From an uncultured Chroococcidiopsis sp. (lineage in GTDB: Bacteria; Cyanobacteriota; Cyanobacteriia; Cyanobacteriales; Chroococcidiopsidaceae): a stretch of 31,822 nt of DNA. Under the pieces are notes generated by a model, which worked only from the letters and a program-made list of their open reading frames with translations, searched no databases and was not told the origin of the DNA. Below are positions 3,352-23,569 of the stretch, piece by piece; position 1 is the stretch's first letter, and each line of letters starts with the position of its first letter. A program made the position numbers and the translations under genes. The stretch is from the NCBI GenBank assembly GCA_964248365.1, contig CAXTYC010000048.1, positions 1 through 31,822 of the forward strand, written 5' to 3'.

Positions 3352-3490
3352 GAAAAGGGGGTTAGGAAGAAATTTATCTGTTCAGGTTGCTCGTGCGATC
3401 GCACACGAGCGCGTATTAGTTAACACTCAATGCTTAATATGTATATGATAGAGATAGATTGTTATCTCATTACCTGTTGAGGTGAGCGAG

Positions 3491-3853
3491 ATGAAAAAGA
3501 TCCTGGCTCTAACTGCTCTACTAACGCTTTGTACGGTAACTCCTGTTCAAGCAGGGGCGCGAGTAAATTTCGGAGTGTCGGACGATAATGGTTCAGGGGT
3601 AATTATAGTTCCTTCTGGTCAGCACTATTGGAATGACTCACTAGGCTACCACAACAGTTGGGTTCGCCCATATTACTATCCACGCTACAGGTACAATCGG
3701 TTTTACGATCCGCGCGTGGGAGGTTTTAGCCCACGCTACAGGCGGTACAGTCGGTTTTACGATCCGCGCGTGGGAGGTTTTAGCCCATATCATCGGTATC
3801 GTCGATACTACTATCCACGTCGTAGCTTCATCCAATTCGGAATTGGTTTTTGA
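3491..3853 (+). CDS. Small exported Tyr/Arg-rich protein with an internal tandem duplication
   Basis: Shine-Dalgarno GAGGTGA just upstream of ATG 3491; Sec signal MKKILALTALLTLCTVTPVQA; RFYDPRVGGFSP occurs twice; ends QFGIGF. Confidence 0.8.
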   Translation: MKKILALTALLTLCTVTPVQAGARVNFGVSDDNGSGVIIVPSGQHYWNDSLGYHNSWVRPYYYPRYRYNRFYDPRVGGFSPRYRRYSRFYDPRVGGFSPYHRYRRYYYPRRSFIQFGIGF

Positions 3854-4190: not shown

Positions 4191-4227
4191 GCATAAAATT
4201 TGCCCATAAAGTGCGAGAGATAAATAG
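4191..4227 (+). promoter_or_regulatory. Putative ECF-type promoter GCATAAA-N16-CGAG-N7-TAG upstream of the sigma-like gene
   Basis: GCATAAA at 4191-4197, CGAG at 4214-4217, TAG at 4225-4227; the same motif with the same spacing occurs at 19842-19806 (-). Confidence 0.55.
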
Positions 4228-4260
4228 AAGGTTGCATCAATTTGACGCTTTTGGGGGCAA

Positions 4261-4905
4261 ATGAATCAAATGGGTAGAGAAGAACTAGATGAGCAACTCG
4301 AACAGCTAGCACTCATTGCCCAACAGCATCCACAGGGGACACCAAAGCGCCAGCTAGCTTTAGGGCAGCTGGTTGGGATGATTTTGACATCAAATCGGCT
4401 TTGTCGTCCACAACGGGGGAATTTCGCCCATCGTTATGAAGAAATTTATGAGGAGGCAAGACAGGATCTCTTGTTTTATGTTTGCCAAAATATTGATAAG
4501 TATAATCCAGAACGTGGAGGGGTGATGGCATGGTGTAATGTTTTGCTAGAAAGGCGATTTTTTAGAGAAGCTATTCCAAAGGTTTTAGATAAGCAAGATA
4601 TTCAGAAAGTGACCATTACCGATTTAGATAATTTTGCTTTGCCTGAAGAGTCGCCAAGTCTAACAGAAGTCATTCAGGAATGTATAGCATTAGATCCTGA
4701 GAATTTGTTCAAAAATTCTTATATAGAAAACAATCCACAAGCTAATTTTCAAATTTTGACTCAGCAAAGATTAGCAGGAAAGTCTTGGAAAGATATTTCT
4801 GAAAGTTTTGGGATTAAGTTACCAACGCTTAGCAGTTTTTACTACCGTTGCTTAAATCGATTTGCTTCTTATTTAAAAGAATATTGTAGCAGAAATTTAA
4901 CTTAA
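4261..4905 (+). CDS. Sigma-70/ECF-like RNA polymerase sigma factor
   Basis: Region-2-like EEARQDLLFYVCQNIDKYNPERGGVMAWCNVLL; region-4 HTH GKSWKDISESFGIKLPTLSSFYYRCL; 214 aa. Confidence 0.8.
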   Translation: MNQMGREELDEQLEQLALIAQQHPQGTPKRQLALGQLVGMILTSNRLCRPQRGNFAHRYEEIYEEARQDLLFYVCQNIDKYNPERGGVMAWCNVLLERRFFREAIPKVLDKQDIQKVTITDLDNFALPEESPSLTEVIQECIALDPENLFKNSYIENNPQANFQILTQQRLAGKSWKDISESFGIKLPTLSSFYYRCLNRFASYLKEYCSRNLT

Positions 4906-4922
4906 ATTCACCTGACAAACCA

Positions 4923-5858
4923 ATGACGAAAGAATTATCAAATTTAACCTTTAACGTACCTTTGGGAGCAGAAGCTCATCGCCTAGCTCAACAGTTTTGT
5001 AGAAAACAAAGCGGCTCTAAAGTTAAACAAGTCTATCTCAATACTTTAGCAGTGTCTGCTGTCAATTTCTACCTGCAATGCATGGGAATTAAAACAAACT
5101 GGAAAGGTAGTTTAAGTTATTCTCTAGTATTGGGGTCACTTATGGATGTTGCCGATCTAGAAATTCCTAAAATAGGCAAGTTAGAATGTCGTCCAATTTT
5201 ACCACAAACAAATATACTTACTATCCCACCAGAAGTATGGTGCGATCGCCTTGCTTACCTAGCTGTAAGACTTGACTCTTCGCTTGAACAAGCAACACTG
5301 CTAGGATTTACTAAAAAGGCTCCAGAAAGTGGTGAGTTACCCATTAGCCAGTTGCATTCTCTCGAAGATTTTCTCGAATACTTGCATCAAATTAGACAAC
5401 TTCAACCAGCTACAATGCGGGTGAACCTCAGCCAATGGTTTGATCATGTTTTTACAGATAGTTGGCAATCGGTAGAAGCACTTTTAACTACACCAGAAAA
5501 TTTAGCCTTCAGCTTCAGGAGTGCTTCAAGATTGGGTGAAGCTGGTGTTAAAAGGGCGAAACTAATCGACTTGGGATTGCAACTAGCAAATCAGTCTGTA
5601 GCATTACTGGTGGCGATCGCGCCAGATGTCGATGACAAAGTGACTATTCTGGTACAATTACATCCAACGAATGCAGATTATCTGCCACCCGACATCAAAC
5701 TAATTCTACTCTCGGATGGCTCAACACTTCAACTTGTTGAATCTCGCACTGAGGATAACTACATTCAACTGAAACGATTTCGAGTTAACCCAAACGAATG
5801 CTTTGATATTCAAGTAGCTTTTGGTAATGTTAAAGTAACCGAGTCTTTCACCATCTAA
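4923..5858 (+). CDS. DUF1822 family protein
   Basis: Characteristic QVYLNTLAVSAVNFYL, GKLECRP, IPPEVW, VNLSQWF, RAKLIDLG and YIQL motifs; starts 17 nt after the sigma gene. Confidence 0.85.
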   Translation: MTKELSNLTFNVPLGAEAHRLAQQFCRKQSGSKVKQVYLNTLAVSAVNFYLQCMGIKTNWKGSLSYSLVLGSLMDVADLEIPKIGKLECRPILPQTNILTIPPEVWCDRLAYLAVRLDSSLEQATLLGFTKKAPESGELPISQLHSLEDFLEYLHQIRQLQPATMRVNLSQWFDHVFTDSWQSVEALLTTPENLAFSFRSASRLGEAGVKRAKLIDLGLQLANQSVALLVAIAPDVDDKVTILVQLHPTNADYLPPDIKLILLSDGSTLQLVESRTEDNYIQLKRFRVNPNECFDIQVAFGNVKVTESFTI

Positions 5859-5877: not shown

Positions 5878-8172
5878 ATGAATAAGTTGGTTGTCTTGAG
5901 CCTGGGAAATGGTAACTTGTATAACGGCTTTCCTACCGTTACTGCACAGGTTTGGGAACAAAGCGATCGACCAATCAAATTTACAGGCTGTTTACCAGCT
6001 TCCCCTGAAATTGCCGAACTATATAAATATTGGCAACTGCTATATTCTGCTCTCTATCAACGTCTCGATTTAAATCCTCGCATTGAAATTGATGCTGGAG
6101 ACGTGACTAATGTTTCTTCTGTTGAGTTTAGTCATTTGTGTGAGCGTTTGTCAAAGGAAATTAATATTTGGTTAAAATCTGAATCTTTTCGCCACATTGA
6201 GCAGCAATTACGCACATATTTGCACTCAGATGAAGAAATTCGATTCATTATTGAAACCAGCGACAATCTGCTAAAAAGATTGCCTTGGCATTTATGGCAA
6301 TTGTTTGAAGATTATCCCAAAGCGGAAGTTGCCTTAAGTGATACACAGTACCAAAAACCAAATAAATCAATTGCGAAGAAAACGAAATATAAAGTTAGAA
6401 TTTTAGCAATTTTTGGTAATAGTAAAGGAATCGATTTGAGAAAAGATCGATTTTTTTTAGAGCAATTATCGGACAAAGCAGAAATAAAATTCTTAGTAGA
6501 GCCGCGACTAGAGATTTTGCACGATCGCTTGTGGCAAGAATGGGATATTCTATTTTTTGCAGGTCATAGTTTCAGCAAAGAAAAAGGGATAATTCAGCTT
6601 AATCAAACTGAAGCGATCGCGCTTGACTCTTTAAAATATGCCTTGAAGAAAGCTATTAGCAAAGGATTAAAGCTAGCGATTTTTAACTCTTGTGATGGCT
6701 TAGGCTTGGCGCAGGCACTATTTGATTTACACATTCCCCAAGTTATAGTAATGCGAGAGCCAGTGCCAGACGTGGTGGCTCAAGAATTCTTAAAGCATTT
6801 TCTGGCGACATTTTCAAGTGGACAATCTTTATATGCTTCAGTGCGGGAAGCACGAGAAAGGCTACAAAAACTAGAGAATAAATATCCTTGCGCTACTTGG
6901 CTACCTGTAATTTGCCAAAATCCGGCACAAATACCGACTACTTGGCAAGAATGGTGTGGAACAAAAAGCCACTCGTTCAAAACCAGCAAGCAGCGTCTTC
7001 AAAAGATACTGCTGGCGAGTGTGGTGGTAACTGCTTTAATCATGGGAGTGCGCCAGCTAGGAATGCTACAAAGTTGGGAGTTGCAGGCTTTTGACTCTTT
7101 GATCCGGTTGCGATCAGATGAAAAGCCAGATCCACGCCTTTTGATAGTTACTGTAACTGAAGAAGATATTCAGAATCAGAATATCAAGGAAATGAGAAGT
7201 TTATCGGATGGTGCGTTAACGCAACTATTAAAGAAACTACAGCCATATCAACCGCAAGTTATTGGCTTGGATATTTATCGCAATTTCCCTGTAGATCCCA
7301 ACTATGCAAATTTAAAAACATATTTGCAGGATCGGCGCTTGATTGCTGTTTGCGAAGTTGGTGAAAACGATTATAAAGGAATTGGACACCCACCAGAAAT
7401 TCCACAAGATCAAATCAGTTTTAGCGATTTTCCAGTTGATAGCGATCGCGTCATTCGTCGTCAATTATTGGGTATGGCTCCCGATCCGAAGTCTTTTTGT
7501 TCAACAGATACATCATTTAGCTTCCGAGTCGCGCTAAATTATTTATCTAGCCTCGGCATTGAGTCTAAACTAACCCCAGAAAGAAACTGGCAAATCGGCA
7601 ATGTCGTTTTTAAGAAACTCGAATCTGATGCAGGCGGTTATCAGCAGTTAGATGCATTGGGATACCAAGTATTGCTCAATTACCGCTGCTCTAATTCTGT
7701 GGCAAAGCAAGTCAGTCTTTACGACATCTTAAGCGGTTCGCTTGATGCTGAATTACCTAATTTAGTTAAAAATAAAATCGTCTTGATTGGCACTACAGCC
7801 AAAAGCTTTAAAGATTATTTTACCACACCTTATAGCGCTGGTCAATCATCTGAGGAACTGCCTGGAGTGGTTATTCATGCAGAGATGGTGAGTCAGATTA
7901 TTAGTGCTGTATTGGATCGGCGAACAATGTTGTGGTGGCTACCTGGTTGGGGTGAAACGCTCTGGATCTGGAGTTGGTCTTTTGTGGGTGGTATATTGGT
8001 ATGGTTGCGATCGCCTGTACGTCTTGGCGGTGCGATCGTCTTTGCACTGATTATCTTATCTGGACTTTGCTTTGTTGTGTTGCTTTTGGGTGGTTGGATA
8101 CCACTCGTACCCTCAGCCTTGGCTTTATTACTCACTAGCGGTAGTTTAGTTGCTTATAAGATATTGCAGTAG
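5878..8172 (+). CDS. Membrane protein: N-terminal CHAT (caspase-like) domain, TM, CHASE2 sensor, 3 TM
   Basis: CHAT motifs LPWHLW, FFAGHS (His), IFNSCDG (Cys), VMREPVPD; CHASE2 motifs DPRLLIVTVTEEDI, IGLDIYR, KIVLIG, PGVVIHA; three C-terminal hydrophobic helices. Confidence 0.9.
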   Translation: MNKLVVLSLGNGNLYNGFPTVTAQVWEQSDRPIKFTGCLPASPEIAELYKYWQLLYSALYQRLDLNPRIEIDAGDVTNVSSVEFSHLCERLSKEINIWLKSESFRHIEQQLRTYLHSDEEIRFIIETSDNLLKRLPWHLWQLFEDYPKAEVALSDTQYQKPNKSIAKKTKYKVRILAIFGNSKGIDLRKDRFFLEQLSDKAEIKFLVEPRLEILHDRLWQEWDILFFAGHSFSKEKGIIQLNQTEAIALDSLKYALKKAISKGLKLAIFNSCDGLGLAQALFDLHIPQVIVMREPVPDVVAQEFLKHFLATFSSGQSLYASVREARERLQKLENKYPCATWLPVICQNPAQIPTTWQEWCGTKSHSFKTSKQRLQKILLASVVVTALIMGVRQLGMLQSWELQAFDSLIRLRSDEKPDPRLLIVTVTEEDIQNQNIKEMRSLSDGALTQLLKKLQPYQPQVIGLDIYRNFPVDPNYANLKTYLQDRRLIAVCEVGENDYKGIGHPPEIPQDQISFSDFPVDSDRVIRRQLLGMAPDPKSFCSTDTSFSFRVALNYLSSLGIESKLTPERNWQIGNVVFKKLESDAGGYQQLDALGYQVLLNYRCSNSVAKQVSLYDILSGSLDAELPNLVKNKIVLIGTTAKSFKDYFTTPYSAGQSSEELPGVVIHAEMVSQIISAVLDRRTMLWWLPGWGETLWIWSWSFVGGILVWLRSPVRLGGAIVFALIILSGLCFVVLLLGGWIPLVPSALALLLTSGSLVAYKILQ

Positions 8173-8423: not shown

Positions 8424-9296
8424 ATGCATTTGTCTCGATACGCACTTGCCTGCATTTTGGCATTTATCAGCTTCGCAAACCCATCCAGATTGTCCGCGCA
8501 ATCTCCAACCACTAATAACACATCCAAACCACCTAAGAGTACTTCCAAACCAACTAACAACATTCCCGATAGTAAACCACGCAGGCAACCACAAAGGCAG
8601 CAGCAGGAAAAAATTGATTTTTCTAGTTACGGTAGACCTGGAAATCGGGCAGGAGGAGGAAGCCGTAGCCCCTGCTCATCTACGAGTATACCTCTAACTG
8701 CCTTAATGCCTGAGTCTAACTGGGGAAAAACAGTTGCAGCTACACCGACTTTTTGGTTCTATGTTCCCTATTCTCCGACTGAAGCACGTTCGGGGGAATT
8801 TGTTTTGCAAGATGAAAAATACAATGATATCTACCGTACTCCTTTTACTTTGCCGCAAACGCCAGGTTTTGTTAGCTTAACCGTTCAGTCTCCTGAAGGA
8901 ACTCTCCAGACGGATAAGTGGTATTTTTGGTCTTTCAAGCTTTATTGCGGTCAAAAATCATCTACGCCTGTTTTTGTGGAAGGATGGGTGCAAAGAGTTG
9001 CATTAACAAGTCAACTTGAGCAACAGCTAAAAACAACAACAGAAGATTATGCGGTTTATTGGGCAGGGGGTATTTGGTACGATGCTGTAGATCGTCTTGC
9101 TAAGCTTCGTTTGGCTGATACGAAAAACGTTTTGCTCAATCGTGAATGGGTTGAGTTGTTGGAGTCAAGAGGTGTTGGTTTGAATCAGTTGGCGCAAGAG
9201 TCGATGGTTGGGGAGGTGAGATATTATTTAACGAACCGCCAAGACGCTAGCCTGGGGTTTAAACCCCAGGGAAGCGCGAAGGAAGGAAATAGGTAA
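8424..9296 (+). CDS. DUF928 domain exported protein
   Basis: Signal peptide; G(R)PGNRAGGGSR..C, LTALMP, PTFWFYVPY, GWVQRV, GIWYDA motifs. Confidence 0.88.
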   Translation: MHLSRYALACILAFISFANPSRLSAQSPTTNNTSKPPKSTSKPTNNIPDSKPRRQPQRQQQEKIDFSSYGRPGNRAGGGSRSPCSSTSIPLTALMPESNWGKTVAATPTFWFYVPYSPTEARSGEFVLQDEKYNDIYRTPFTLPQTPGFVSLTVQSPEGTLQTDKWYFWSFKLYCGQKSSTPVFVEGWVQRVALTSQLEQQLKTTTEDYAVYWAGGIWYDAVDRLAKLRLADTKNVLLNREWVELLESRGVGLNQLAQESMVGEVRYYLTNRQDASLGFKPQGSAKEGNR

Positions 9297-9304
9297 TTAC
9301 ATCC

Positions 9305-12172
9305 TCAAAGCCAGTTACCTACTAGAACGTAAGCAGCCCAGAAGTAAGGACGTTTCCAGTCTTGGCTTGGGTTTTTCCATAGGGATAGTTGGGCGCGTTG
9401 GAGTGCTTCAGCTTTGGTTAGATTGTGATCGCCTAAAGATTTGTAGAATTCATTCATGAGTGTAGCAGCAGAGCGATCGTCTACTGACCACAATGTTGCT
9501 AAGGTACTACGTGCGCCAGCTCGCACGGCTATCCCAGCTAGTCCTAAAGCGGCTCGATTGTCTCCTGCTGCTGTTTCACAAGCACTGAGGACGAGTAATT
9601 CGATCGCTCTAGACTTGTCCCAGTTACTATTTTTGATTAAATTATCCAAGTCAGTTATCTTTAGCAATCGATCCCAGGTGAGAATAAAGGTTTCGTCCAG
9701 GTTGGAACTGAATTGTCCGTGAGTTGCCATGTGAACTACGGAAAAGGGAGCCGAGTTGAGTTGATTTTGAATGTTTGTTGTAGTAAATTTATTGTTGAAT
9801 ATCTCCTTACTTTTTGGTACTTCAGATTGAATTTGCTTTAATTCCAATCTGGCGTTTTTAAGTTCGGGAAATTCTTGACCTTCAACTTTGCGTTTTTGAT
9901 CGAGTCCAGCAACCAAGACATTTAGCTTTTCCCTTTGCAAAGATTTGGGTTCTAATAGTTGTAAGCTTGGAGTTAAGGCGATCGCATATTTCTCTAAGAG
10001 ATACTTTTGCTGTTTGTTGTCGTATAAAACAGCCATCGGAATATTTCGCAAGGCACTATCTAGCACAAATACTAGTTTTTTAACCTGCGTTTTTTCTAAA
10101 TCAGCCTCAAGCGGTTGAATCAGCCAGCTATAAACGAGGGCAGATAATTTCTGCACGTCATTGGTTCGATCGGGTTCTCTTAAGTATTGTTGCAGTTGTT
10201 CTAGAGTTGTTTCTACTTCTGTGTTGGATATATTCGTCGCATAGTGACGCAGCGGTTGATTTGGTAACTTGAGGACGATCTCTAACCGTTGTGGCAATAT
10301 AATTGAATAGATAACGGATGTATAGCGATCGCCCAAGTCAACAACGCGATCGATCAGTTCTGGCTGAGGATTTAAACAAGCTGAACGAAAGAAATTTTCT
10401 AATTCTGCTAGCTGCAATGATTCAATTGTATTTCGAGCAAGCGTGAGATTCTCGTTTTCAGAAGGCGATTGCAATAGCAAGTCAACTAACTGGCGATAAA
10501 CTGGTTCGACTTCATCCCGAAAGTTAAACTGTACCTGTGGGTTAATTGCAACTAAATCTTTACGCAGGAATTCGAGGTTTTTAACTGCTTGGGAGTATGC
10601 TGCGATCGCATCGGGAATATTTCCCTGCTCTCTAAATATACGCCCTAACTGCCACTGCCAACGATATGCAATATCTGTTGCATCAATTGACTGTGCTAAA
10701 AACAAAGCTTCCTGGGTGAGTTTTTCAGCATCATTCCACTGTTGGGTTTGTTCGTACAAACTACCTAAACTACCCAAAGCATAAGCTTCTGCGCGCTTAT
10801 CTCCCAAACTTTTAGCCTGTTGCACTGCTGTAGATAAGATTTGAGCAACAGAAGAGGGGCTATATGAGGGGCTAGAGGCTAGGGGCTGGGGGTTAGGGAA
10901 ATTTTGCGGAAAGTTGGCGGTGTCGGTTTCCGTCCCGCCAAACTTTCCAAGACGGATTTTAGATTTTGGATTTTGGATTGTCAATTCCTCCCCTTGTCCC
11001 CCTTGTCCCCCTTGTCCCCCTTTTCCTCTAGTTCCTTCTTCCCTAGTCCCTAGCCCCAAGCCCCCAGCCCCTAACTTCATCAAACTTTGGGCAAAGTTAA
11101 TTTGAGCGTAAACAGCCGTTCGACTGGGTGGCAAGTTGGCAAGCCCAGCCTGGATTTGGGGATATAATACTTTAGCCCAATCCCATTGCTTTGTTTCTAC
11201 CAATAAGCTAAGTTGATTTAGCTGCGCTTGAAGGCGTGTAGTTGATGCAGATGCATCTTCTGCCTGCTGATAAAACTTTAAAGCAGCTTGGGTGTCTTTT
11301 TGGGCGCGGGCAGTGTTACCTAAACTAAGTAGAGTATCGCTGATAGCTTGGGAAGAATGCGATGCCGAAGGCGGTTCGCTTTGCGACCATCGCGTTGCCA
11401 CATTCAAACTTTCCTCTAATACCTGACGAGATGCTTTTAAATTGCCGACAACGCGAAAGACATTGCCAAGACTACGCAATCCTAACGCTTTAAGTTCAGA
11501 ATTTGGTTGTTTTTGCAGACTTTGTTGGACTTTTGTTAAAGTTTTCTCTGCTTGACGATAATGCCCCAGAGTTTGTAGAGCTTGAGCAGAATTGATTTGG
11601 TTACGGGTTAGCCCAGCATCATCTTTTAATTTTACATAAATATCAGCTGCTTGTCGCCAAGTAGTTAAAGCTAGTTCAGTTTTTCCTTGTGCCAATTGCA
11701 GACGACCTTGAATATCTAAAGCTTGGGCAAGAACATCAAGATTTTGGATTTTAGATTTTGGATTTTGGATTGCATCTCCTCTGCCCCTCTGCCCCTCTGC
11801 CCCTCTGCCCTTCTCCCCAGAATATCCCAGTAAATTGAGACAGGAGGCGATCGCCAATTGTGCTTTGTCCCACACTCCGAGTTGCTGATAAGCTAAGGAA
11901 AGATTGCTCAAGCTCAAGGCTTGGTTGAGTTTATCCCCAGAAGCTTTGAAGGAATTAACAGCTTGTTGCAAGAGTGCGATCGCAGAGGTATACTGTTCGG
12001 CATCGTAGAATTTTTTGCCTTGCTGCACCAATTGTTGGGCATTGGGATTTTGAACGATAGATTCCGCAGTTGTATAAGCAAGGGTGGGCGGCAATACTGC
12101 TGTGCATAATAATAGAACCAAAAATATTACGATTCTACTTTTACGAATAAATGTAGGCTGTTTTCTTCCCAT
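9305..12172 (-). CDS. Exported TPR-CHAT (HetF/caspase-like) protease
   Basis: N-terminal signal peptide; many TPRs; IESLQLAELENFF; catalytic HMATHG and LSACETA; LATLWSVDD; C-terminal PYFWAAYVLVGNWL. Confidence 0.92.
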   Translation of the reverse strand: MGRKQPTFIRKSRIVIFLVLLLCTAVLPPTLAYTTAESIVQNPNAQQLVQQGKKFYDAEQYTSAIALLQQAVNSFKASGDKLNQALSLSNLSLAYQQLGVWDKAQLAIASCLNLLGYSGEKGRGAEGQRGRGDAIQNPKSKIQNLDVLAQALDIQGRLQLAQGKTELALTTWRQAADIYVKLKDDAGLTRNQINSAQALQTLGHYRQAEKTLTKVQQSLQKQPNSELKALGLRSLGNVFRVVGNLKASRQVLEESLNVATRWSQSEPPSASHSSQAISDTLLSLGNTARAQKDTQAALKFYQQAEDASASTTRLQAQLNQLSLLVETKQWDWAKVLYPQIQAGLANLPPSRTAVYAQINFAQSLMKLGAGGLGLGTREEGTRGKGGQGGQGGQGEELTIQNPKSKIRLGKFGGTETDTANFPQNFPNPQPLASSPSYSPSSVAQILSTAVQQAKSLGDKRAEAYALGSLGSLYEQTQQWNDAEKLTQEALFLAQSIDATDIAYRWQWQLGRIFREQGNIPDAIAAYSQAVKNLEFLRKDLVAINPQVQFNFRDEVEPVYRQLVDLLLQSPSENENLTLARNTIESLQLAELENFFRSACLNPQPELIDRVVDLGDRYTSVIYSIILPQRLEIVLKLPNQPLRHYATNISNTEVETTLEQLQQYLREPDRTNDVQKLSALVYSWLIQPLEADLEKTQVKKLVFVLDSALRNIPMAVLYDNKQQKYLLEKYAIALTPSLQLLEPKSLQREKLNVLVAGLDQKRKVEGQEFPELKNARLELKQIQSEVPKSKEIFNNKFTTTNIQNQLNSAPFSVVHMATHGQFSSNLDETFILTWDRLLKITDLDNLIKNSNWDKSRAIELLVLSACETAAGDNRAALGLAGIAVRAGARSTLATLWSVDDRSAATLMNEFYKSLGDHNLTKAEALQRAQLSLWKNPSQDWKRPYFWAAYVLVGNWL

Positions 12173-12282: not shown

Positions 12283-15078
12283 TTACTTTGCATGACATTT
12301 AGCTGGTGTCTGCTTGGAATTACCTGGTAATACGGGAGTAGCAGAGGCTGTAAGGATAACATTGCCATTGTTAGCGATCGTCCAGCCAGTAGCTTCTAGG
12401 ATAGAATCTGGCTCAGGTGTGGTTATATTTGTGGAAACACCTTGGTTGCGGTTTTCTACTTTTGGATTGAGAGTTACCCAATCAACCTGTACAGCATCAC
12501 TGCTGAGCGTTTCGTCTGGACTAGGAGGCAAGCCGCCGCGACCTGTGACCACAAATTCGCTTTGTGCTTGATTTCCACTCGGTTGACAAGTCTGTGCTAC
12601 CCTAGCTTCAACTAGCTGGACTGGCAGGTTTATTAGCCCACTATTAGGTTCAATGCCTGGTGTATTGATGTCTACTACGCCGTTTACTCCAAACTGGGAA
12701 CTGGCAGTAATGTCACTTTCTGGAGTTAGTTGTGAATGGTACTTTAGTCCATAGATGCCTTGGGCAGTGATGTTGATGTTTCCTCCCCGACCTTGAAAGG
12801 CATTGGCAGTGATGTCGCTGTCTTCAATAGGGACAGCAACGATGAAGCCATTAGGAGCATTGATGGTGATATTACCGCCGTCTCCTCCTTTCTGGCCTGT
12901 GCCTGCATTCGTAGAAATTCGACTACCCTGACGCAGCAGCAGGATGTCTCGCAGCTTTATCCCAATCTCACCACCTTGAGTACTAAATGTTTCTGCTGAA
13001 ATCTGCCCTTGATTCTTAAGGATTAAACTGCCAGCCTGAACGTCAATTTTGCCTCCTTGTCCATTTCCTTGACTATTAACTGCTATTTCGGCACCGCCTT
13101 GAAGCGTCAATTTGCCGGAATTAATGACAATATCACCGCCAAAGCCTTCTGTGTTGGGGTCGGTGTTAGCAAACAGCCCGCTGACAGCACCTAAATTGCT
13201 AACACTGCCTCCATTTCGGCTGTCTCCAAATTTAGTGAGTCGGTCATCGTAGGTAGGGTCACTACCAGAAAGGGTAGCGCTACCAGTAATGTTGAGAGTT
13301 ATATTGCCTGCTTTTCCACTGTTATAAGTTCTTGTAATTATTTGTCCACCATTAGTTGCTTCAAAGGTATCTGCATTGATGGTGAGGCTACCTCCAGGTT
13401 TGGAGTTGTTAGTTTGAGCTTCTACAATTGCTCCATCAGCTACACGAAACGAGCCTGTACTAACTGTAGCTTTGCCTGCTGCTCCTGCGGTGTCATTTAT
13501 ACTTGCGACACCTATTAAGCTAGAAAATCCATTGTTTCCTACCCCCTGTAAAAAAACAGTATCCGGGGCATTGATATTCACATTGCCTGCATTTCCTTGA
13601 CCTCTAGTGATGGCAAGCAGTTGAGCACCATTGGTAACAGAAAGCGACCTGGTGCTGATGCGGATCTCCCCACCTTGTCCTCTGCCAGTTCTGCCCACGT
13701 CACTGAAGGCATCACTACCAGAACTACCATCGCTACTTCTGCCATCGAAGGAGACGCGATCGTGGGCATCGATGATGATATTCCCTGCATCACCCTCTCC
13801 ATCGGTACTGGCAACCAATTGAGCGCCGTTTGTAAGTGAAAGTTCCCTGGTGCTGATGCGAATGTCTCCACCCTTTCCTATGCCAGTCTTATCAACAGAG
13901 CTGAAGATAGCAGTGGAATAATTAGGATCGCTACCTTTGCCATCCAAGGAGACGTGATCGCGGGCATCAATAATAATATTTCCTGCATTCCCTTGACCAA
14001 GGGTACTGGTACTCAGTTGAGCGCCTTTTGTAAGTGTGAGTTCCCCAGTGCTGATGCGGATATTGCCACTGTTGCCCGTAGCTCCTGATACCACCCTATT
14101 TGTAAACAAACTGTTATTAGTAAGGTTTATTGTTCCTGTAGCGTTAACTTCTATATCCCCTGCTTGAGAGCCAACAGAACCCAACCCTGAACCTATCCCC
14201 GCCCGCAGCCTACTTTCTCCTGCCAGATTCAAGTTTTGGGCATTGACTGCAATACTTCCACCGCCGCTAGCACGTACATTCACATCAGCGCCATTATTAA
14301 GGAATACGTCTGCTCGTGGTAAACCATCAGGAAAATTCAAACGCAGATCGCTATTATCAACATTCAGCCCTACAGTTCCCGATCCTGCCACACTTCCCAA
14401 CTCGACACGCCCGCCAGGAGCAAAGATTTTCCCACCCTCTAAGCTGACATTGCCACCTACTAATAACAAACTCTTGCCTTGAGGTACTTGTAACCCCCTT
14501 GAGTCAGCTGTAGAACGATTGACAATCTCTTGTGTCTTAAGTTGATTAAAAAGCAATGCATTCGGATTCACATTCAACAGTTTTGTGGGCAGGGGTGCTT
14601 GTGGATTAGTACTAAAAATATCTCCATTAGTTAATCCAATCCCATTAGCTGTTGTTCCAACAAACGAACCTTTAACATCTAAACTTGCATTTTGTCCAAA
14701 AATAATCCCATTCGGGTTAATCAAAAATAGGTTGGCATTGCCTAATACTCCCAGCTTGCCAAGTATTTGAGAGGGATTACCTCCTGTAACTCTACTCAAG
14801 ATGTTCTCAATTCCAGTAGGGTTGGTAAAATAGACCGATCGCCCTTCACCGACATTAAATTCCCCAAAACTGTGAAACAGGTTAGCGCCTCTAGTTGCGC
14901 CGCCGTTGATAGAGTCAACCGATCCTGTTGATTTAACTGTAGAATTTTCATTACCCAATGTGTTATCAGGTATAACCTGGGCATAAGCGCAATTTGCCCA
15001 AGTGTTAGCGAAGCTTAACGAAGTTATCGCACCACTCATCACTAAAGTCGCTAACCCTAGTTTCCAGCTTTGAATCAT
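12283..15078 (-). CDS. Filamentous haemagglutinin N-terminal-domain (TpsA-like) beta-helix exoprotein
   Basis: Signal peptide ending AYA-Q; NLFHSFGEFNV, NILSRVTG, NPNGIIFG; Gly-rich GGNI.I repeats including three 198-bp units (gtgctgatgcg at 13652, 13850, 14048); C-terminal FVVTGRGGLPPSP and EATGW. Confidence 0.9.
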   Translation of the reverse strand: MIQSWKLGLATLVMSGAITSLSFANTWANCAYAQVIPDNTLGNENSTVKSTGSVDSINGGATRGANLFHSFGEFNVGEGRSVYFTNPTGIENILSRVTGGNPSQILGKLGVLGNANLFLINPNGIIFGQNASLDVKGSFVGTTANGIGLTNGDIFSTNPQAPLPTKLLNVNPNALLFNQLKTQEIVNRSTADSRGLQVPQGKSLLLVGGNVSLEGGKIFAPGGRVELGSVAGSGTVGLNVDNSDLRLNFPDGLPRADVFLNNGADVNVRASGGGSIAVNAQNLNLAGESRLRAGIGSGLGSVGSQAGDIEVNATGTINLTNNSLFTNRVVSGATGNSGNIRISTGELTLTKGAQLSTSTLGQGNAGNIIIDARDHVSLDGKGSDPNYSTAIFSSVDKTGIGKGGDIRISTRELSLTNGAQLVASTDGEGDAGNIIIDAHDRVSFDGRSSDGSSGSDAFSDVGRTGRGQGGEIRISTRSLSVTNGAQLLAITRGQGNAGNVNINAPDTVFLQGVGNNGFSSLIGVASINDTAGAAGKATVSTGSFRVADGAIVEAQTNNSKPGGSLTINADTFEATNGGQIITRTYNSGKAGNITLNITGSATLSGSDPTYDDRLTKFGDSRNGGSVSNLGAVSGLFANTDPNTEGFGGDIVINSGKLTLQGGAEIAVNSQGNGQGGKIDVQAGSLILKNQGQISAETFSTQGGEIGIKLRDILLLRQGSRISTNAGTGQKGGDGGNITINAPNGFIVAVPIEDSDITANAFQGRGGNINITAQGIYGLKYHSQLTPESDITASSQFGVNGVVDINTPGIEPNSGLINLPVQLVEARVAQTCQPSGNQAQSEFVVTGRGGLPPSPDETLSSDAVQVDWVTLNPKVENRNQGVSTNITTPEPDSILEATGWTIANNGNVILTASATPVLPGNSKQTPAKCHAK

Positions 15079-15206: not shown

Positions 15207-16586
15207 TTACACATCTGCAATCAGCCTTGCCTTTCTCAGAAAGAATTGCAGTACAGTTTCTTCTCTTGAGATAATATCGGCTGTACCTTCCATGCCCAAT
15301 TGGATCGCACACTGATGTTCGCCTCTACCTAAAGTAAGATTTTCTGGCTCAATCGTTACCTGATAAAAGGAAGCAACAGCCGCTTTTTGGCTTGCATCTG
15401 TTGTCGCGGCGCTATTTGCACCATTTGCTTGGGGAGTAATTGCATCTGGGGAAATCGCCTTAACCTTACCTTTGAGAGTGCCGTAATCAGGATAAGGACA
15501 GGCAGAAACGCGCATTTGTACGTTTTGACCTGCTTTCAATTTGTTTTTATCCCCAAGTGCGACGGCTGCCTTTATAACTATAGGTGCATTACTTGGGACA
15601 ATTTCAGCAATTTCCTCGCCTGCGCTGACTGTTTGACTGTTGTTGCGTAGTTTCAGCCGTGAGATTATACCATCAGAGGTTGCAGTAATAACAGTGCGAC
15701 CGAGTTCAATATTTACTTGTCCTAGTTCGCGGCTATCCCCATCTAGCTGTTTTTGAATTTCAATTCTTTGACCGATCAAAGCATCTCGTTCTTTATTTAA
15801 TGTAGCAATGTTAGCTGTTCCTGTCGCTTTTTCTTGGGCGATGCGTGAAGAAGCGATCGCAACTTCTGCATTACTCGGATTAAGGAGGGCGATCGCGTGA
15901 TGCAACTTGGCTTTAGCCGCCGAAACTGCTTGTGATTGCTGGCGGACAGCTAGTTGTGCTTCCTCAAATTGATCTTGAGACAAAGCACCAACTTTTGCTA
16001 CACTTGCGTATCGGTTGCGTTTTGTCTGGGCTGCTTTCAGACCAGCCTCGGCTGCTTTTACATTCGCTTGTGCTTCCTCAACATCAGTGGCGGTAGTAGT
16101 TTGTTTGTCTTGATATTCTCGACTACGACCGCTTAATTCAGCTTCCGCCGCAGCGACAACGCGATCGCTTTTTTCAGTTTCGGCGCTTATTTGCCGATTA
16201 AGGGCATTGATCTGACCGTTGATTTGAACGAGTTGTAATTTCTGAAGCTGTATACTATTTTGCAGTTGACTTTTTTTGGTTTGCAAGCGGGAATCGTCAA
16301 TAGTTGCGATCGCATCTCCGGTTTTAACCGTTTGATTCTCTTTGACCGAGATACTCATAATCGAACCTTCCGTTGCAGCGTTAACAATCCGCAACTCACC
16401 AGTCGGTCGAACATTCGCCTCTGCTTTGACCGTCACCTTATATTTAACCACAGAGGCAAGCGCGATCGCTATTACCATTGCACCGAGCATAACCATTCCG
16501 CCGAAAGTAGTCCAACGACCGAGTGGTGGAAGAAACTCGTTATCTTGAACTTGAGGTAGATAGTCTGAATTGGAGTGACTAATCAT
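15207..16586 (-). CDS. HlyD-family periplasmic adaptor of a type I exporter
   Basis: N-terminal TM, lipoyl-like VKENQTVKTGD, long coiled coil, ACPYPDYGTLKGKVKAISPD, GMEGTADII. Confidence 0.93.
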   Translation of the reverse strand: MISHSNSDYLPQVQDNEFLPPLGRWTTFGGMVMLGAMVIAIALASVVKYKVTVKAEANVRPTGELRIVNAATEGSIMSISVKENQTVKTGDAIATIDDSRLQTKKSQLQNSIQLQKLQLVQINGQINALNRQISAETEKSDRVVAAAEAELSGRSREYQDKQTTTATDVEEAQANVKAAEAGLKAAQTKRNRYASVAKVGALSQDQFEEAQLAVRQQSQAVSAAKAKLHHAIALLNPSNAEVAIASSRIAQEKATGTANIATLNKERDALIGQRIEIQKQLDGDSRELGQVNIELGRTVITATSDGIISRLKLRNNSQTVSAGEEIAEIVPSNAPIVIKAAVALGDKNKLKAGQNVQMRVSACPYPDYGTLKGKVKAISPDAITPQANGANSAATTDASQKAAVASFYQVTIEPENLTLGRGEHQCAIQLGMEGTADIISREETVLQFFLRKARLIADV

Positions 16587-16637
16587 CAGAGTAGGGGTGA
16601 GGGATGAGGGGTGAGGGGTAACTGCTAACTGCTAACG

Positions 16638-16862
16638 GCTAATTACTTACTGCTTTAAGCTAATTGCTTTCTGCTTTGAGCTAATTGCTTACTAAAAACA
16701 GCTAATTGCTTTCTGCTTTGAGCTAATTGCTTACTGAAAACACGTAATTGCTTACTGAAAACACGTAATTGCTTACTGAAAACACGTAATTGCTTACTGA
16801 AAACAGCTAATTGCTTACTGCAAACACTTAATTGCTTACTGAAAACAGCTAATTGCTTACTG
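16638..16862. repeat. 21-bp tandem repeat array, about 10.7 units (consensus gctaattgcttactgaaaaca)
   Basis: Units start every 21 nt from 16638 to 16848; two tail variants (gctttga and gaaaaca); flanked by short STRRs. Confidence 0.95.
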
Positions 16863-16962: not shown

Positions 16963-19149
16963 CTACCAACTACCACTAACAACCAAACCATTTGTTGATG
17001 GGAGAAAATCGTCTAGAAAGTCCAAGTGTTCGCCAGCCATGTGACGCAGAGTTTCTGGAGTGCCTTGAATTTTCAATTTCCCTTCTTCTAGCAGTACAAT
17101 CCAATCAGCCCGTTGGATAACTTTCGGGCGATGACTGATCGTAATTGTGGTTTTGCCCTGTCTATGGTATAACAATCTATCTAAAACTTCCGCTTCACTG
17201 ACTGGATCGAGAGCGCCTGTAGACTCATCTAAAATAAGTATGGGTGGATCGGTGACAATGGCTCTAGCGATCGCTAATCTCTGTTTTTGACCACCAGACA
17301 AATTCGCGCCAAATTCTCCCAAAACAGTTTGATACTTATCCGGCAATTTACTGATAAATTCATCTGCACCAGCTATTTGACAAGCGAGGACAATTTGTTC
17401 AAAACTAATATCAGGATAGCTAAAGCGGAAGTTATCGACGATTGAGCGACTCCAAAAGTGGGGTTCTTGTGGGACTAATACCACCTGTTGGCGCAGACAT
17501 TCTACCGAGAGGTCTTGCTGATTGTATATGCCATAGCGGATATTACCAGACTGACAGAAATATAAACCAGCAATCAGTTTGGCGAGGGTACTTTTACCAC
17601 AACCGGATTTACCAATCAAGGCAATAACTTTACCGCCAGGGATATTCAGGGAAAAATCTTCAAGCAAGTCAACTCTACCTGCATGATGAAAATTGAGATT
17701 GGTGCAGATAATATCTGTATTGTTGGGAATTTCAGCCCAAGGCTTTTTCTCGTCTTTTTCATCTTCTGGGGTAGCGTCAATCACTTCCGTCAGACGTTGA
17801 ATCACAATCTGGGCAGTGATAAACTCATCAACTAAGCCGATGGCTGCGCTCAAAAAGCCAAGAAAGTTGCCACTCATACCGCTAAACGCTAGCAACTGAC
17901 CAATGCTGAGGGTACGATTAATCACTAAGTACGAGCCTATCCAAAGTAAGGCAATACTAGTAAAATTAGAGAGAATACCAGTGATTGTGCTACTGTAAAG
18001 CCCCAATTTCATCGTACTCCAGCCCAAATTAGCCAGCCGACCAAAATTAGTTTGATATTCTTGCCAAGCTTGCCCAGTGGCTTGGGTAGTCTTTAGCACC
18101 TGGACACCGCGAAATGTTTCCACCAAAAAGCCTTGGTTTTCTGTACCTAAGACAATTTGGTTACGAGTTTTTTGGCGCAAGGCTGGGAGAAACAGCAGGT
18201 TAACTATTGTGACAATGATAAACGCAGCGATGGAAGCCAGAGTCAGTCCCCAGCTGTAGAACAGCATAAAGCCCAAGGACACTATGGCGATGAAAAACTG
18301 GCTGGGTAAACCAAGGACGATTTGGGAAACTAAGGCATTGATATGACTAACATCAGCAATGCGACTGACAACTTCCCCGCTACGTCGTCCTTCAAAATAA
18401 GTCAGGGGTAAGTGCAGAAGTTTTCGCCCGTATTCCAGCAGCAGCCCTAATTGTAGCCGTTGACCAAAGTGACCGATTAGGTGAGACTGGACTAAATTAA
18501 TGGCACTTCTAAATAAGTTCATAGCTATAACACCAATTGCCACAGTTGTCAACAATTGGGGATCTCCTCTCACCAAAACGTCATCGGTGAGAAGTTGCAT
18601 CATCAAAGGCGAGGCGAGGGACAATAAACCAACAGCTATGTTAATTGCGATCGCCTGAGCCAAAATAGACCGATAGGGCAATACTCGCTTGAGATAACGC
18701 CCAAAACCGCCAACCTTATCATCTTGCTGCTCGTAAAAACGGCTATCGTCTGGTGTCAGCAGCAGCATGATACCATTACCCCAACCGAGGACTAACTCCT
18801 CGCGGGTAAGGTAACGGATGCCAACACCAGGGTCAGAAATTACAAATTTTTTCCCTTTTTGCCCGTATAAAACTACCCAGTGATAGCCTTTCCAGTGAAT
18901 GATAGCTGGAAGGGGTGCTTTGTGCAAAGAGTCAAGTATTTGAGCAGAGGCTTTAACTTGGCGGGCATGAAATCCAAGGGCTTCTGCACCCCGCTTCAAC
19001 CCTAGTAAAGTCGTTCCCCGCGATCCCGTGCCAACAGCTTCTCGTACTCGACCTATGGCAAAGGTGCGTTTGTAGTGTTTGGCAACAGTGGCAATGCAGG
19101 CAGCACCACAGTCTTCTTCACTGTGTTGTAGAACAATTTTGTATTTCAT
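16963..19149 (-). CDS. Peptidase-containing ABC transporter (C39 peptidase, ABC membrane domain, ATPase)
   Basis: QHSEEDCGAAC (catalytic Cys), HWVV..D; Walker A GKSGCGKS; signature LSGGQKQR; Walker B ILILDE. Confidence 0.96.
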   Translation of the reverse strand: MKYKIVLQHSEEDCGAACIATVAKHYKRTFAIGRVREAVGTGSRGTTLLGLKRGAEALGFHARQVKASAQILDSLHKAPLPAIIHWKGYHWVVLYGQKGKKFVISDPGVGIRYLTREELVLGWGNGIMLLLTPDDSRFYEQQDDKVGGFGRYLKRVLPYRSILAQAIAINIAVGLLSLASPLMMQLLTDDVLVRGDPQLLTTVAIGVIAMNLFRSAINLVQSHLIGHFGQRLQLGLLLEYGRKLLHLPLTYFEGRRSGEVVSRIADVSHINALVSQIVLGLPSQFFIAIVSLGFMLFYSWGLTLASIAAFIIVTIVNLLFLPALRQKTRNQIVLGTENQGFLVETFRGVQVLKTTQATGQAWQEYQTNFGRLANLGWSTMKLGLYSSTITGILSNFTSIALLWIGSYLVINRTLSIGQLLAFSGMSGNFLGFLSAAIGLVDEFITAQIVIQRLTEVIDATPEDEKDEKKPWAEIPNNTDIICTNLNFHHAGRVDLLEDFSLNIPGGKVIALIGKSGCGKSTLAKLIAGLYFCQSGNIRYGIYNQQDLSVECLRQQVVLVPQEPHFWSRSIVDNFRFSYPDISFEQIVLACQIAGADEFISKLPDKYQTVLGEFGANLSGGQKQRLAIARAIVTDPPILILDESTGALDPVSEAEVLDRLLYHRQGKTTITISHRPKVIQRADWIVLLEEGKLKIQGTPETLRHMAGEHLDFLDDFLPSTNGLVVSGSW

Positions 19150-19176: not shown

Positions 19177-19204
19177 TGCGATCAAGGCTTTTGCCCCGAT
19201 CGCA
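19177..19204 (-). terminator. Stem-loop / probable weak intrinsic terminator between the cargo gene and the transporter
   Basis: Minus strand tgcgatcggggc-aaaa-gccttgatcgca (12 bp with 2 G-U pairs) followed by ctttctcct. Confidence 0.55.
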
Positions 19205-19330: not shown

Positions 19331-19726
19331 CTAGTAGGTGATCCGCCCTGCAATGTCGAAGGCACGGTAACCGCTGTCACCCTCAAAGTCGAGCTTGAAG
19401 GGGGTGTTATCGCGCACGTCCGCTGCAACAGTGAAGACTCCGTCGATGTTTGCAGGAATAGTCCTCTGGTAACTGCTTATATCAGTGCCATCGGGACGCA
19501 CAGCTTTAACCTTCACGTCATACGGGTGCTTAGTCAATCGAATTGAAATGTCGTTGAATTGGCTAGTGGTGGTATACACCTTTGGGAATGTCTTTGATCC
19601 GAATGCCGGAACTCTGCCTGCGATAGGTGATAAGGCTCCTCCTGTTATAGAAGCAGAATTGTTATCTGAAATTTCTTCAAACAGAGGGGCTTCGGTCAAC
19701 TGTTGTTCATGCTGATTGTCTTTCAT
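19331..19726 (-). CDS. Double-glycine-leader secreted protein (30-aa leader + 101-aa mature domain), likely substrate of the adjacent exporter
   Basis: Shine-Dalgarno AGGAG before ATG 19726; leader ...PLFEEISDNNSASITGG then ALSPIAGR...; lies directly upstream of the C39 transporter. Confidence 0.85.
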   Translation of the reverse strand: MKDNQHEQQLTEAPLFEEISDNNSASITGGALSPIAGRVPAFGSKTFPKVYTTTSQFNDISIRLTKHPYDVKVKAVRPDGTDISSYQRTIPANIDGVFTVAADVRDNTPFKLDFEGDSGYRAFDIAGRITY

Positions 19727-19805
19727 CTTTTTCTCTCCTATTGAAGTGTGAATGATTCTGTGATGTTTCGAGTTGGCAAACTGCAAAACCTGTTGTTTTG
19801 TGTTG

Positions 19806-19842
19806 CTAGTTCTTACTCGGAGGGTTACGCCTTGGTTTATGC
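19806..19842 (-). promoter_or_regulatory. Putative ECF-type promoter GCATAAA-N16-CGAG-N7-TAG upstream of the cargo/exporter operon
   Basis: Minus strand GCATAAA (19842-19836), CGAG (19819-19816), TAG (19808-19806); matches 4191-4227. Confidence 0.55.
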
Positions 19843-20017
19843 CAAATGTCAGTTCTTGTAATATTCCTTAACAAATTGACTCGGATGCAGCCCGTTGTAT
19901 CCCCAGCCGCGCCCCCACAGCAGGCTAAAAAGGGCAGGTTTTACCTGACAGTAAAGAGCCAAAAGGATTTAAGATCCATACACTAGCCTCAGTTTTTGCC
20001 AGGGTGGGAAACGCTTT

Positions 20018-23000
20018 ATGTCTTTCGTCGGTCTACACATTCACAGTGATTACAGCCTACTTGACGGTGCTAGCCAGTTACCGCAATTGGTAGATAGAGC
20101 GATTGAATTAGGGATGAAGGCGATCGCTCTGACCGATCATGGAGTAATGTATGGTGCGATCGAGTTAATTAAAACCTGTCGCAGCAGAAATATTAAGCCG
20201 ATTATCGGCAATGAAATGTATGTAATTAATGGTAATATTGAAGAACAGAAGCGCTGCAAAAAATATCATCAAGTTGTTTTAGCTAAAAACGATAAAGGTT
20301 ATAAAAATTTAGTTAAATTAACAACCATTTCTCATCTGAAAGGCTTTCAAGGTAAAGGTATATTTGCTCGTCCTTGTATTAATAAAGAACTATTAGCACA
20401 ATATCATGAAGGCTTAATCGTTACTAGTGCTTGTCTAGGTGGTGAAGTACCTCAAGCAATTTTGGCAGGTAGACCGGATGTGGCTCGGAAAACTGCCCAA
20501 TGGTACAAAGATGTATTTGGGGATGATTACTATTTAGAAATTCAAGATCACGGTTCGCCTGAAGATCGAATCGTCAATGTTGAAATTATCAAAATTGCCC
20601 AAGAACTAGGGATTAAATACGTTGCTACGAATGATTCCCATTATATTTCTTGCTATGACGTTGAGGCTCATGATGCATTGCTATGCATTCAAACAGGTAA
20701 GCTGATTGTTGAAGATAAACGAATGCGCTACAGCGGGACAGAGTATCTCAAATCTGCTGAAGAAATGGCATTTCTATTTCGAGATCATCTGCCAGAGGAT
20801 GTAATTTCGCAGGCGATCGCTACTACCCAAGAAGTAGCCGACAAAGTTGAACCATATCATATTATGGGTGAACCGCGCATTCCTAATTATCCAGTTCCGG
20901 CTGGACACACCGCTGATACATTTCTAGAACACGTAGCTTGGGAAGGATTATTACAACGCTTCAATCGCAAATCCCGTGCTGAAATTGAGCCAATCTACAA
21001 AGAAAGGTTGGAATACGAACTGAAAATGATGCAGCAGATGGGATTTTCAACTTACTTTTTAGTAGTTTGGGACTATATCAAATACGCCAGAGATAATAAT
21101 ATACCAGTTGGTCCTGGTAGAGGTTCAGCAGCAGGTTCTTTAGTTGCTTATGCTCTGAAAATTACCAACATAGATCCAGTACATCACGGATTACTATTTG
21201 AGCGATTTTTGAACCCAGAACGTAAATCAATGCCTGATATTGATACAGATTTCTGTATTGAAAGACGAGATGAAGTTATAGATTATGTTACTCGCAAATA
21301 TGGGGAAGAGCGCGTAGCCCAAATTATTACTTTTAACCGATTGACATCAAAAGCTGTATTAAAAGATGTAGCGAGAGTATTAAATATTCCTTACGGTGAC
21401 GCAGATCGCATGGCGAAATTAATTCCTGTTGTGCGGGGTAAACCTACTAAACTGAAAGTGATGATTTCCGACGAAACTCCATCACAGGAGTTTAAAGAAA
21501 AATACGAAACTGACCCGAATGTCCGCCATTGGGTTGATATGGCGATGCGGATTGAAGGGACAAACAAAACTTTTGGTGTCCATGCGGCTGGCGTAGTAAT
21601 TTCATCTGAACCGCTGGATGAAATTGTCCCATTGCAAAAAAACAATGATGGGTCAGTAATTACCCAGTATTTCATGGAAGATTTGGAATCAATGGGTTTA
21701 TTGAAAATGGATTTTTTGGGATTAAAAAATCTCACACTCATCCAAAATACAGTTAATTTAATTAAGCAAAATCAAAAGATTGATATAGATCCAGATAAAC
21801 TGCCGCTAGAAGAAAGAAGAGTGCAGAAGATATTGGCAAAAGGCGAACAGAAAAAAATGCCCGAAGACGTTGAAAAAGCCTATAAAATTTTAGAAGCAGG
21901 GGATTTAGAAGGCATATTTCAATTAGAATCTTCAGGAATGCGTCAGATAGTACGAGATTTAAAACCTTCCTGTATAGAAGATATTTCCTCAATTCTTGCC
22001 CTATATCGACCAGGACCTTTAGATGCAGGCTTGATCCCTCTATTTATTGACCGTAAGCATGGGCGGGAAGAAATTAAATACGAGCATTCAATACTAGAGC
22101 CGATTTTGGATGAAACATATGCAGTTCTAGTGTATCAAGAACAAATCATGAAAATGGCTCAGGATATGGCAGGATATTCCTTGGGACAAGCTGATTTGTT
22201 AAGACGAGCAATGGGTAAAAAGAAAGCTTCTGAGATGCAAAAACATCGAGAAACTTTCGTGGATGGTGCAGCTAAAAATGGAGTGAAAAAGCAGATAGCA
22301 GAAGGTCTATTTGACCAAATGGTGAAGTTCGCTGAATACTGTTTTAATAAATCCCATTCAACGGCTTATGGTTATGTAACTTATCAAACTGCATATTTAA
22401 AGGCAAATTATCCGGTTGAATATATGGCAGCACTGTTAACAGCTAACAGTGGTGATACTGATAAGGTGCAGAAATATATTTCTACCTGTATGAGTATGAA
22501 TATACAGATAGAGCCACCGGATATTAACCGTTCAGGGGTGGATTTTACACCGTTGGAAAAAAAGATTTTGTTTGGATTTTCGGCTGTCAGAAATGTAGGA
22601 CAAGCAGCGATCGCCTGTATTTTAGAAGCAAGAGAGAAAGGCGAGTTTAAATCCTTAGCAGATTTGTGCGATCGCGTCGATCTGCGCGCTGTTAACCGCC
22701 GCGCGTTGGAAGCATTAATTAACTGCGGTGCTTTCGATCAAATTCAACTCAACCGCCACCAGTTAATTAAAGATCTTGAACTGGTATATGATTGGGCGCA
22801 ATCTCGTGCTAAAGATCGAGCAAGTGGTCAAGTAAGTTTATTTGACTGGGGTGGCATGACTTCTATATCTTCAAATAATAACTTTGATTGTGCCCCCAAA
22901 GCTACCGCTGTAGATGATTTCCCTCAATCAGAAAAGCTGCGACGGGAAAAAGAATTACTGGGTTTTTATGTCTCAGATCATCCCCTTAAGGCGGTACGAC

Positions 23001-23569
23001 AAGCAGCACAAATCATGGCTCCAATTAACTTAAGCGATTTGGGCGATGTGGGTGAAGATACGCTGTTGAGTGCTGTCGTGATGCTGACGAGTATCAAGCC
23101 AGTGACGACAAAAAAAGGCGATCGCATGGCGATCGTACAAATAGAAGACTTGACAGGACAAACAGAAGCAGTCGTCTTCCCCAAGGCTTACGAACGGATT
23201 GGATCTTTATTGGTAGAAGATACGCGAATGATTGTTTGGGGCAAAGTAGATCGCCGAGACGATCAACTACAGCTAATTGTAGAGGATGCAGAGCCAATTG
23301 AAAACGTCCAGATGGTGATGGTGGAACTAACCCCCCAACAAGCAGGGACGTTTGAAGAACAGAACCGTCTGGGAGGAATTTTGCAAGAACAGATAGGCGA
23401 GAAAGAAAAAGCTAAAGTTCCCGTATTTGGAATTATCACGGCTGCAAATCGCCGTCAAATTGTCCGATTTGGGCGCTCATTTTGGGTACAGGATGGTTTT
23501 GCTGCTGTGGAAGCGCTCAAAGCAGCGAGATTCCCCGCTCATGTGCAACCCCTCGTTAGTCAGGTATGA
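20018..23569 (+). CDS. dnaE: DNA polymerase III subunit alpha, contiguous and intein-free
   Basis: PHP motifs [11 protein letters not shown] and [33 protein letters not shown]-terminal OB fold; 1183 aa. Confidence 0.98.

Follow-up and report, generated by a model that had tools for sequence, protein, structure and literature searches.

The window, a stretch of 31,822 nt from an uncultured Chroococcidiopsis sp., carries the gene of a sigma-like protein and, on the opposite strand, a gene for a double-glycine-leader cargo protein, each preceded by the same bipartite sequence. This raises the question of whether the sequence is a promoter that the sigma-like protein reads, both at its own gene and at the cargo gene.

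A bipartite motif upstream of two genes

A pattern search of the window locates GCATAAA-N16-CGAG exactly at 4191-4217 (+) and at 19842-19816 (-). The two 37-nt blocks that begin with these sequences are both in sense orientation and stand 33 and 79 nt from the ATG codons at 4261 and 19726, respectively, in agreement with the preliminary description, which had a same-spaced bipartite motif heading both arms. It had also described the spacer as largely dissimilar, and only 4 of the 16 spacer bases are indeed identical in the two copies. At the sigma gene, the predicted -35 element is an exact GCATAAA (4191..4197, +), the predicted -10 element is CGAGA (4214..4218, +) and an ATAGA block follows (4224..4228, +), all three being conserved in relatives; from this geometry only, transcription would start near A4226 (+/-2). 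At the cargo gene, the corresponding elements are GCATAAA (19836..19842, -) and CGAGT (19815..19819, -), and a CTAGC block (19805..19809, -) with a start expected near A19807.

Taken as a pair within this genome (G000), the two copies are no better than chance. A genome scan, as had been suggested, does find both exact matches to GCATAAA-N16-CGAG inside the window, but two matches in 5.58 Mb compare with ~1.95 expected per spacer length. When up to two mismatches are allowed, the window contains 9 matches versus 9.01 expected, and the 21 of 37 bases shared by the two blocks are equalled or exceeded in 177 of 250 upstream regions drawn at random. The motif is established by its conservation in relatives, and not by the pair in this genome. 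The earlier count of only two sites was too low, an error in the finding's favour, as a third is present at G000:C4:156337-156375 (+). The surrounding segment, G000:C4:156295-156787 (L187), is homologous to the entire cargo promoter block and precedes a 94-aa ORF without a Pfam match.

Conservation upstream of sigma homologues

Eighty loci encoding homologues of the sigma protein were gathered, of which five had no usable upstream region and were dropped. In 65 of the 75 regions scored, a three-block model, TTGCRTAAA-N16-nGAGA-N5-ATAGA, exceeds the 99th percentile of shuffles, the model having been trained on these same regions, among them some from close kin and one duplicate pair. Conservation reaches down to homologues with 26% protein identity. 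The spacer is 16 nt long in 53 of 64 sigma sites, 15 nt in 7 and 17 nt in 4, and the -10 block has its G in 68 and its A in all of 70 training sites. Variants of the motif track the sigma clades (TCCGAAAA-AGAAA, TGGATAA-CGATA, GCATAAT-N15-TGATA and others), and different cassettes within one genome have different variants, GCATAAA-N16-CGAGA and GCATAAT-N15-TGATA in G000 and three in G338. The second G000 variant belongs to a second complete cassette, at G000:C9:527-12740; its sigma homologue was considered as a candidate HetZ and rejected, as it belongs to this paralogous cassette. In G491 and G551 (L205, L213, L214 and L216), there are sigma-family paralogues of ~380 aa, whose matches to the profile are split into separate pieces. 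Motif variants lie back to back upstream of these paralogues, and the same variant heads glycine/aspartate-repeat genes.

The predicted sigma factor and its putative recognition helix

The gene at 4261..4905 (+) encodes a protein of 214 aa that a weak HMM match and the predicted fold suggest to be a divergent ECF-like sigma factor. Its scores are below the curated cut-offs, 20.1 bits versus 42.9 for TIGR02937 (E 0.00038) and 13.9 versus 25.7 for PF08281, and in this it differs from the ECFs of the published classification (Casas-Pastor et al. 2021, PMC7826278), being below both the Pfam and the NCBIfam thresholds. Sequence searches of the PDB returned nothing significant, and Foldseek, run on the structure model (pLDDT 87.6), gave no match at E 0.001. 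In direct comparisons, the N-domain of the model aligns with SigC sigma2 over 86 residues (Z 9.9, rmsd 2.1), and each of the nine best structural matches is a sigma domain. The C-domain resembles helix-turn-helix proteins with Z scores of 6.5-6.8, which are middling taken alone.

Among 42 sigmas with <70% identity, the column that co-varies most strongly with the first base of the -35 block is residue 192, which is located in the predicted recognition helix and is S in the sigma of the window. This base is not G in 7 of 7 sigmas with D or E at residue 192 and in 2 of 35 others, a difference with a Fisher p of 1.3e-6 that ignores kinship. The D/E-192 sigmas occupy six tips or small clades, and the poor resolution of the deep branches of the sigma tree makes the count of independent D/E origins uncertain. 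From this co-variation we infer that sigma4 reads the -35 block, with residue 192 setting its first base. Aligned by eye, residue 192 would be the counterpart of D294 in sigma-HetZ, the acidic sigma4 residue that contacts a C-rich -35 element (Hu et al. 2026, PMC13342950).

Sigma-HetZ, with its partner PatU3, is also a late-found, atypical cyanobacterial ECF with two motifs 16-17 bp apart and a co-transcribed inhibitor, but has no detectable homology to the protein described here, has 397 rather than 214 aa and recognizes TCCGGA / TGnA (PMC13342950). A HetZ-like label, the first lead, was dropped in the absence of homology, with a profile-comparison probability of 0.62%; no match to a HetZ model was found in the sigma protein, nor any between the DUF1822 protein and the product of the ORF that follows hetZ.

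The DUF1822 protein and the putative sigma operon

Downstream from the sigma gene are genes for a DUF1822 protein (4923..5858, +; Pfam PF08852), a CHAT (caspase-like)-CHASE2 membrane protein (5878..8172, +) and a DUF928 protein (8424..9296, +), the last two recognized by domain search. A stretch of ~200 aa without domain assignment precedes the CHAT domain. DUF1822 is predicted, from a model of its complex with the sigma factor, to be an anti-sigma-like partner. This model scores 0.83, versus 0.00 for the best control, with 86% contact agreement and a partner pLDDT of at least 80; of the solved complexes, 116 of 157 attain the mark set for such scores, as do 2 of 215 mismatches. The modelled contact covers sigma residues 187-195, and with them the predicted recognition helix, and would fit an anti-sigma role for DUF1822. 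None of 14 control genomes encodes a DUF1822 protein.

The sigma, DUF1822 and CHAT-CHASE2 genes are adjacent, as in the EACC2-caspase / ECF / DUF1822 system. Such neighbourhoods were catalogued in 2021 (Kaur et al., PMC8195603), and share with the window an ECF-like sigma, DUF1822 and a caspase/CHAT protein with CHASE2; a proteolytic step that acts towards the sigma is proposed there. In its accessible text, this computational catalogue names no promoter, target genes, DUF928 protein or upstream activator site. Neither DUF1822 nor CHASE2 occurs in the main text, or in the part of the supplement that was searched, of the ECF classification (PMC7826278), which does document comparable autoregulated promoters, with a group-specific bipartite motif that precedes the sigma gene itself and varies by subgroup. 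The accessible parts of PMC9679502 and PMC2758279 add nothing that bears on the promoter, and a literature search, with few subscription papers within reach, found no paper on the promoter, regulon or targets of the cassette. What is new here is a promoter and target genes, both predicted, for an already catalogued cassette; an autoregulated ECF-type promoter is of a known kind.

Second sites and the predicted regulon

A leave-one-out scan of both strands of 55 neighbourhoods (3.33 Mb), with close kin kept in the model, gave 72 matches, 68 of which are outside ORFs, versus 6 in the reversed-sequence control. There are 35 second sites, in 23 loci, and the genes behind them encode TPS and TPR-CHAT proteins, very large secreted proteins and a small conserved protein. 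In 19 collapsed loci with sigma identity <60%, the core bases of a second site match those of its own sigma's site at 9.82 of 11 positions and those of another sigma's site at 8.36 of 11 (p=0.0001), whereas the values for the spacer bases are 4.03 and 3.61 of 13 (p=0.11). That the core co-varies with the resident sigma while the spacer does not argues against the second sites being recent copies. When second sites were compared out of sample with the resident sigma, G503 matched; G491, G551 and G659 seemed unmatched until a TAGAAA-N16-TGATT variant was seen back to back with the longer sigma-family genes. G010 has two homologous target-type sites, and neither of its two sigma homologues has a matching site of its own.

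The exact pattern, built from the two sites in the window, was searched for in 61 genomes. The 24 genomes that have a strong homologue of the sigma contain 31 matches (control 0), or 28 in 23 when G000 is omitted, with G054 alone supplying 10 of the 31. The 22 genomes with a weak homologue have 7 matches (control 4), and the 15 without a homologue have 1 (control 2); as the pattern is near absent from these last, a common chromosomal sigma is unlikely to be its reader. In a separate scan of G000 there is no genome-wide excess, with 39 matches versus 47 in the reversed sequence; these counts, at control level, speak against a large regulon, and the regulon in this genome looks small. Sixteen short-sigma-independent target or cargo proteins were also scanned, with matches that include PEP-CTERM/exosortase proteins, subtilases, M50 and trypsin-like proteases, a glycosyltransferase and a crystallin.

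The cargo gene and the exporter arm

The cargo gene (19331..19726, -) encodes a protein of 131 aa that has a double-glycine leader and no family match. On the same strand are genes for a peptidase C39 ABC exporter (16963..19149, -), an HlyD-family adaptor (15207..16586, -), a TPS / filamentous haemagglutinin-like protein (12283..15078, -) and a TPR-CHAT protein (9305..12172, -), with the exporter, adaptor and TPR-CHAT protein identified by domain search. TPS or TPR-CHAT genes have motif sites of their own in other genomes; in the window, there is a weak motif-like site (score 3.7) upstream of the TPS gene. No relatives of the cargo were found in 60 genomes, and its atlas matches are all <0.9. 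The mature part of the cargo varies among genomes (19331-19726 in the window, L048, L050, L268) and is crystallin-like in G004 and G146, with the leader and exporter conserved. A 21-nt tandem repeat (16619-16862; 11.6 copies) fills the gap between the C39 and HlyD genes. An unsplit dnaE (20018-23569) is encoded on the strand opposite to the cargo motif, with its start 175 nt away.

The site upstream of the cargo gene scores 3.1 with the strict autopromoter model and 12.2 with a relaxed model, and the latter value is at the genome background, as 181 sites in G000 reach 12 compared with 208 in the reversed sequence. Five syntenic or near-identical loci have a close C39 exporter and a cargo gene (G000, G005, G004, G146, G393). 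Three of them have the site, which is missing in front of the syntenic cargo genes in G146 and G393. In G004, the sigma site (GTGTAAA) and the site before the syntenic cargo gene (GTGGAAA) are both shifted from the common sequence and both have 17-nt spacers, and in G005 the motif precedes a different cargo. Homologous blocks of the cargo type with the motif are also present at G000:C4 and in G003, G006, G010, G011 and G503. A 5′ hairpin after the cargo-type start, with a consensus energy of -1.93 kcal/mol and 1 of 9 pairs changed on both sides, is weak and was not counted.

The sigma factor probably targets the cargo gene. Read-through from the cargo promoter into the exporter genes, to give a single long transcript, may occur, but the cargo gene is followed by a 12-pair hairpin (19177..19204, -), which could be a terminator or a processing site, and the intergenic gaps within the arm are 110-376 nt. 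Terminator-like sites are overall at chance level (17 versus 15.8). The initial suggestion that two operons form one regulon is therefore retained for the cargo gene as a likely target, but weakened for the arm as a whole by the hairpin, the gaps and the lack of a cargo site in G146 and G393.

An HLR1-like repeat upstream of the motif

HLR1, the RpaB site, consists of two KTTACAWW octamer direct repeats 2 nt apart and is activating when centred between -66 and -45 (Riediger et al. 2019, PMC6525291). A direct repeat with 13 of 16 matches to this consensus (PMC6525291) is present at 19858..19875, 13 nt upstream of the cargo motif block. It resembles RpaB-HLR1 activation in the octamers, the 2-nt spacer and the activating position, and differs in that it fronts a predicted ECF-type promoter; its binder is putative and may be another OmpR-type regulator. 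With the start placed at the A of TAG, the repeat is centred near -59, within the activating range. HLR1-like repeats with at least 13 of 16 matches are present in 42 of 64 sigma promoters, versus 4.5% of shuffles, and in 35 of the 42 they lie 12-14 nt in front of the motif. Such a repeat (13/16) is present at 13 nt at both the cargo site and the C4 site, the spacing seen at the sigma promoters of relatives, and the window's own sigma promoter has lost it (10/16). We infer from this arrangement that an RpaB-type activator may bind the repeat. For a promoter of the ECF type, it would be unusual to have an activator site upstream. Sites for NtcA have the consensus GTA-N8-TAC, and none of the 64 upstream segments contains one.

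A probable promoter for the predicted ECF-like sigma factor

The motif is likely a -35/-10 promoter read by the predicted ECF-like sigma factor encoded at 4261-4905. This factor would direct transcription of its own operon, sigma-DUF1822-CHAT/CHASE2-DUF928, and of a few genes for secreted proteins, here the double-glycine cargo and the gene behind the C4 site. The preliminary description had proposed the geometry of an ECF promoter and autoregulation, and both find support, at the level of sequence and predicted structure, in the fixed spacer, the sigma2 fold, the co-variation and the near absence of the pattern from genomes without the sigma. That the two copies resemble each other by chance is extremely improbable: their similarity is at chance level within G000 taken alone, but conservation and co-variation in relatives say otherwise, and for the sigma site the 65 of 75 upstream regions already refute chance. 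The sigma site could instead be a real promoter and the cargo copy a relic moved by a mobile regulatory block, with the exporter arm controlled otherwise. Consistent with this, blocks homologous to that of the cargo precede unrelated or no clear genes (at G000:C4 and in the five other genomes listed above), the cargo site scores weakly and is missing from two syntenic loci, and a hairpin follows the cargo gene. We nevertheless consider a relic unlikely, as the cargo site matches the resident sigma variant perfectly, retains its upstream repeat at the right distance, is maintained in front of another cargo in G005 and has shifted jointly with the sigma site in G004.

The identity of the reader can also be questioned. 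A conserved chromosomal sigma (SigF, SigG, HetZ or another) might recognize the motif, with the cassette just one of its targets, as could be argued from the orphan target-type sites in G010, the slight resemblance of GCGTAAA to the GGTAA element of SigF (PMC2532724), and a likeness to HetZ promoters (PMC13342950) in spacing and in the G of the -10 block. This is very unlikely given one match in 15 genomes without the sigma, no excess in G000 and different variants in cassettes of the same genome (two in G000, three in G338). A SigF promoter has TAGGC at -32 and GGTAA at -12 (PMC2532724), an order other than that of the motif, and the consensus does not conform to it; the TCCGGA and TGnA of HetZ are also unlike the motif (PMC13342950). 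It is decidedly unlikely, too, that the blocks form an operator, at which the sigma gene product acts as an ordinary activator or repressor or which DUF1822 binds, rather than a holoenzyme promoter. The failure of the protein to reach any sigma HMM cut-off or to give a Foldseek match at E 0.001 would fit an operator, and the co-variation points to recognition by a cassette product but not to its mode. The blocks are, however, asymmetric, with a fixed 16-nt spacer and always in sense orientation to a gene, and the protein is predicted to have an N-terminal sigma2 fold and a C-terminal helix-turn-helix. In addition, a consensus scan, at chance level overall, listed no sigma70-type site within 400 nt upstream of the sigma gene.

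If the motif is the promoter of this sigma factor, a signal at the CHASE2 domain would activate the CHAT protease and DUF1822 would then release the sigma, presumably through proteolysis; a caspase-like CHAT step that frees the sigma has been put forward as a possibility (PMC8195603). The sigma holoenzyme would initiate near 4226, resulting in positive feedback, and near 19807, where an RpaB-type activator might assist in transcription of the cargo gene. Both starts are predictions from the motif: the literature search found no published start-site set for any genome with the cassette, and the one RNA run that matched (share 0.05) has contigs of a different but related strain and carries no start information.

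Much more tentatively, this could be a widespread cyanobacterial sigma family, missed by standard models, that reads a three-part promoter with -35 specificity provided by one helix residue, and that joins a caspase-like trans-envelope signal and RpaB light/redox control to switch on a secreted surface proteome of PEP-CTERM proteins, giant proteases, TPS fibres and double-glycine cargo. A caspase-linked signalling cassette catalogued by computer would gain a predicted output, namely a promoter, start sites, target genes and a swappable residue-base pair, with targets that point to the building or remodelling of the cell surface. Sigma-promoter pairs of different variants could be used as orthogonal switches in cyanobacteria and, if the prediction is true, would constitute a readable, orthogonal sigma-promoter code.

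Additional features of the loci

In G054 (L249-L253), at least 14 motif sites precede genes for PEP-CTERM proteins, giant subtilase/Calx-beta proteins, an M50 protease and a glycosyltransferase. At five loci (L038:9353-9604, G312, G053, G030 and G100), a protein of 61-86 aa with its own copy of the motif is encoded near the sigma gene, mostly divergently; the one example searched has no Pfam or NCBIfam match. In the window, a 123-aa ORF (3482-3853) contains a repeated stretch (3700-3790) that matches a repeated RYRRYSRFYDPRVGGFSP-like peptide.
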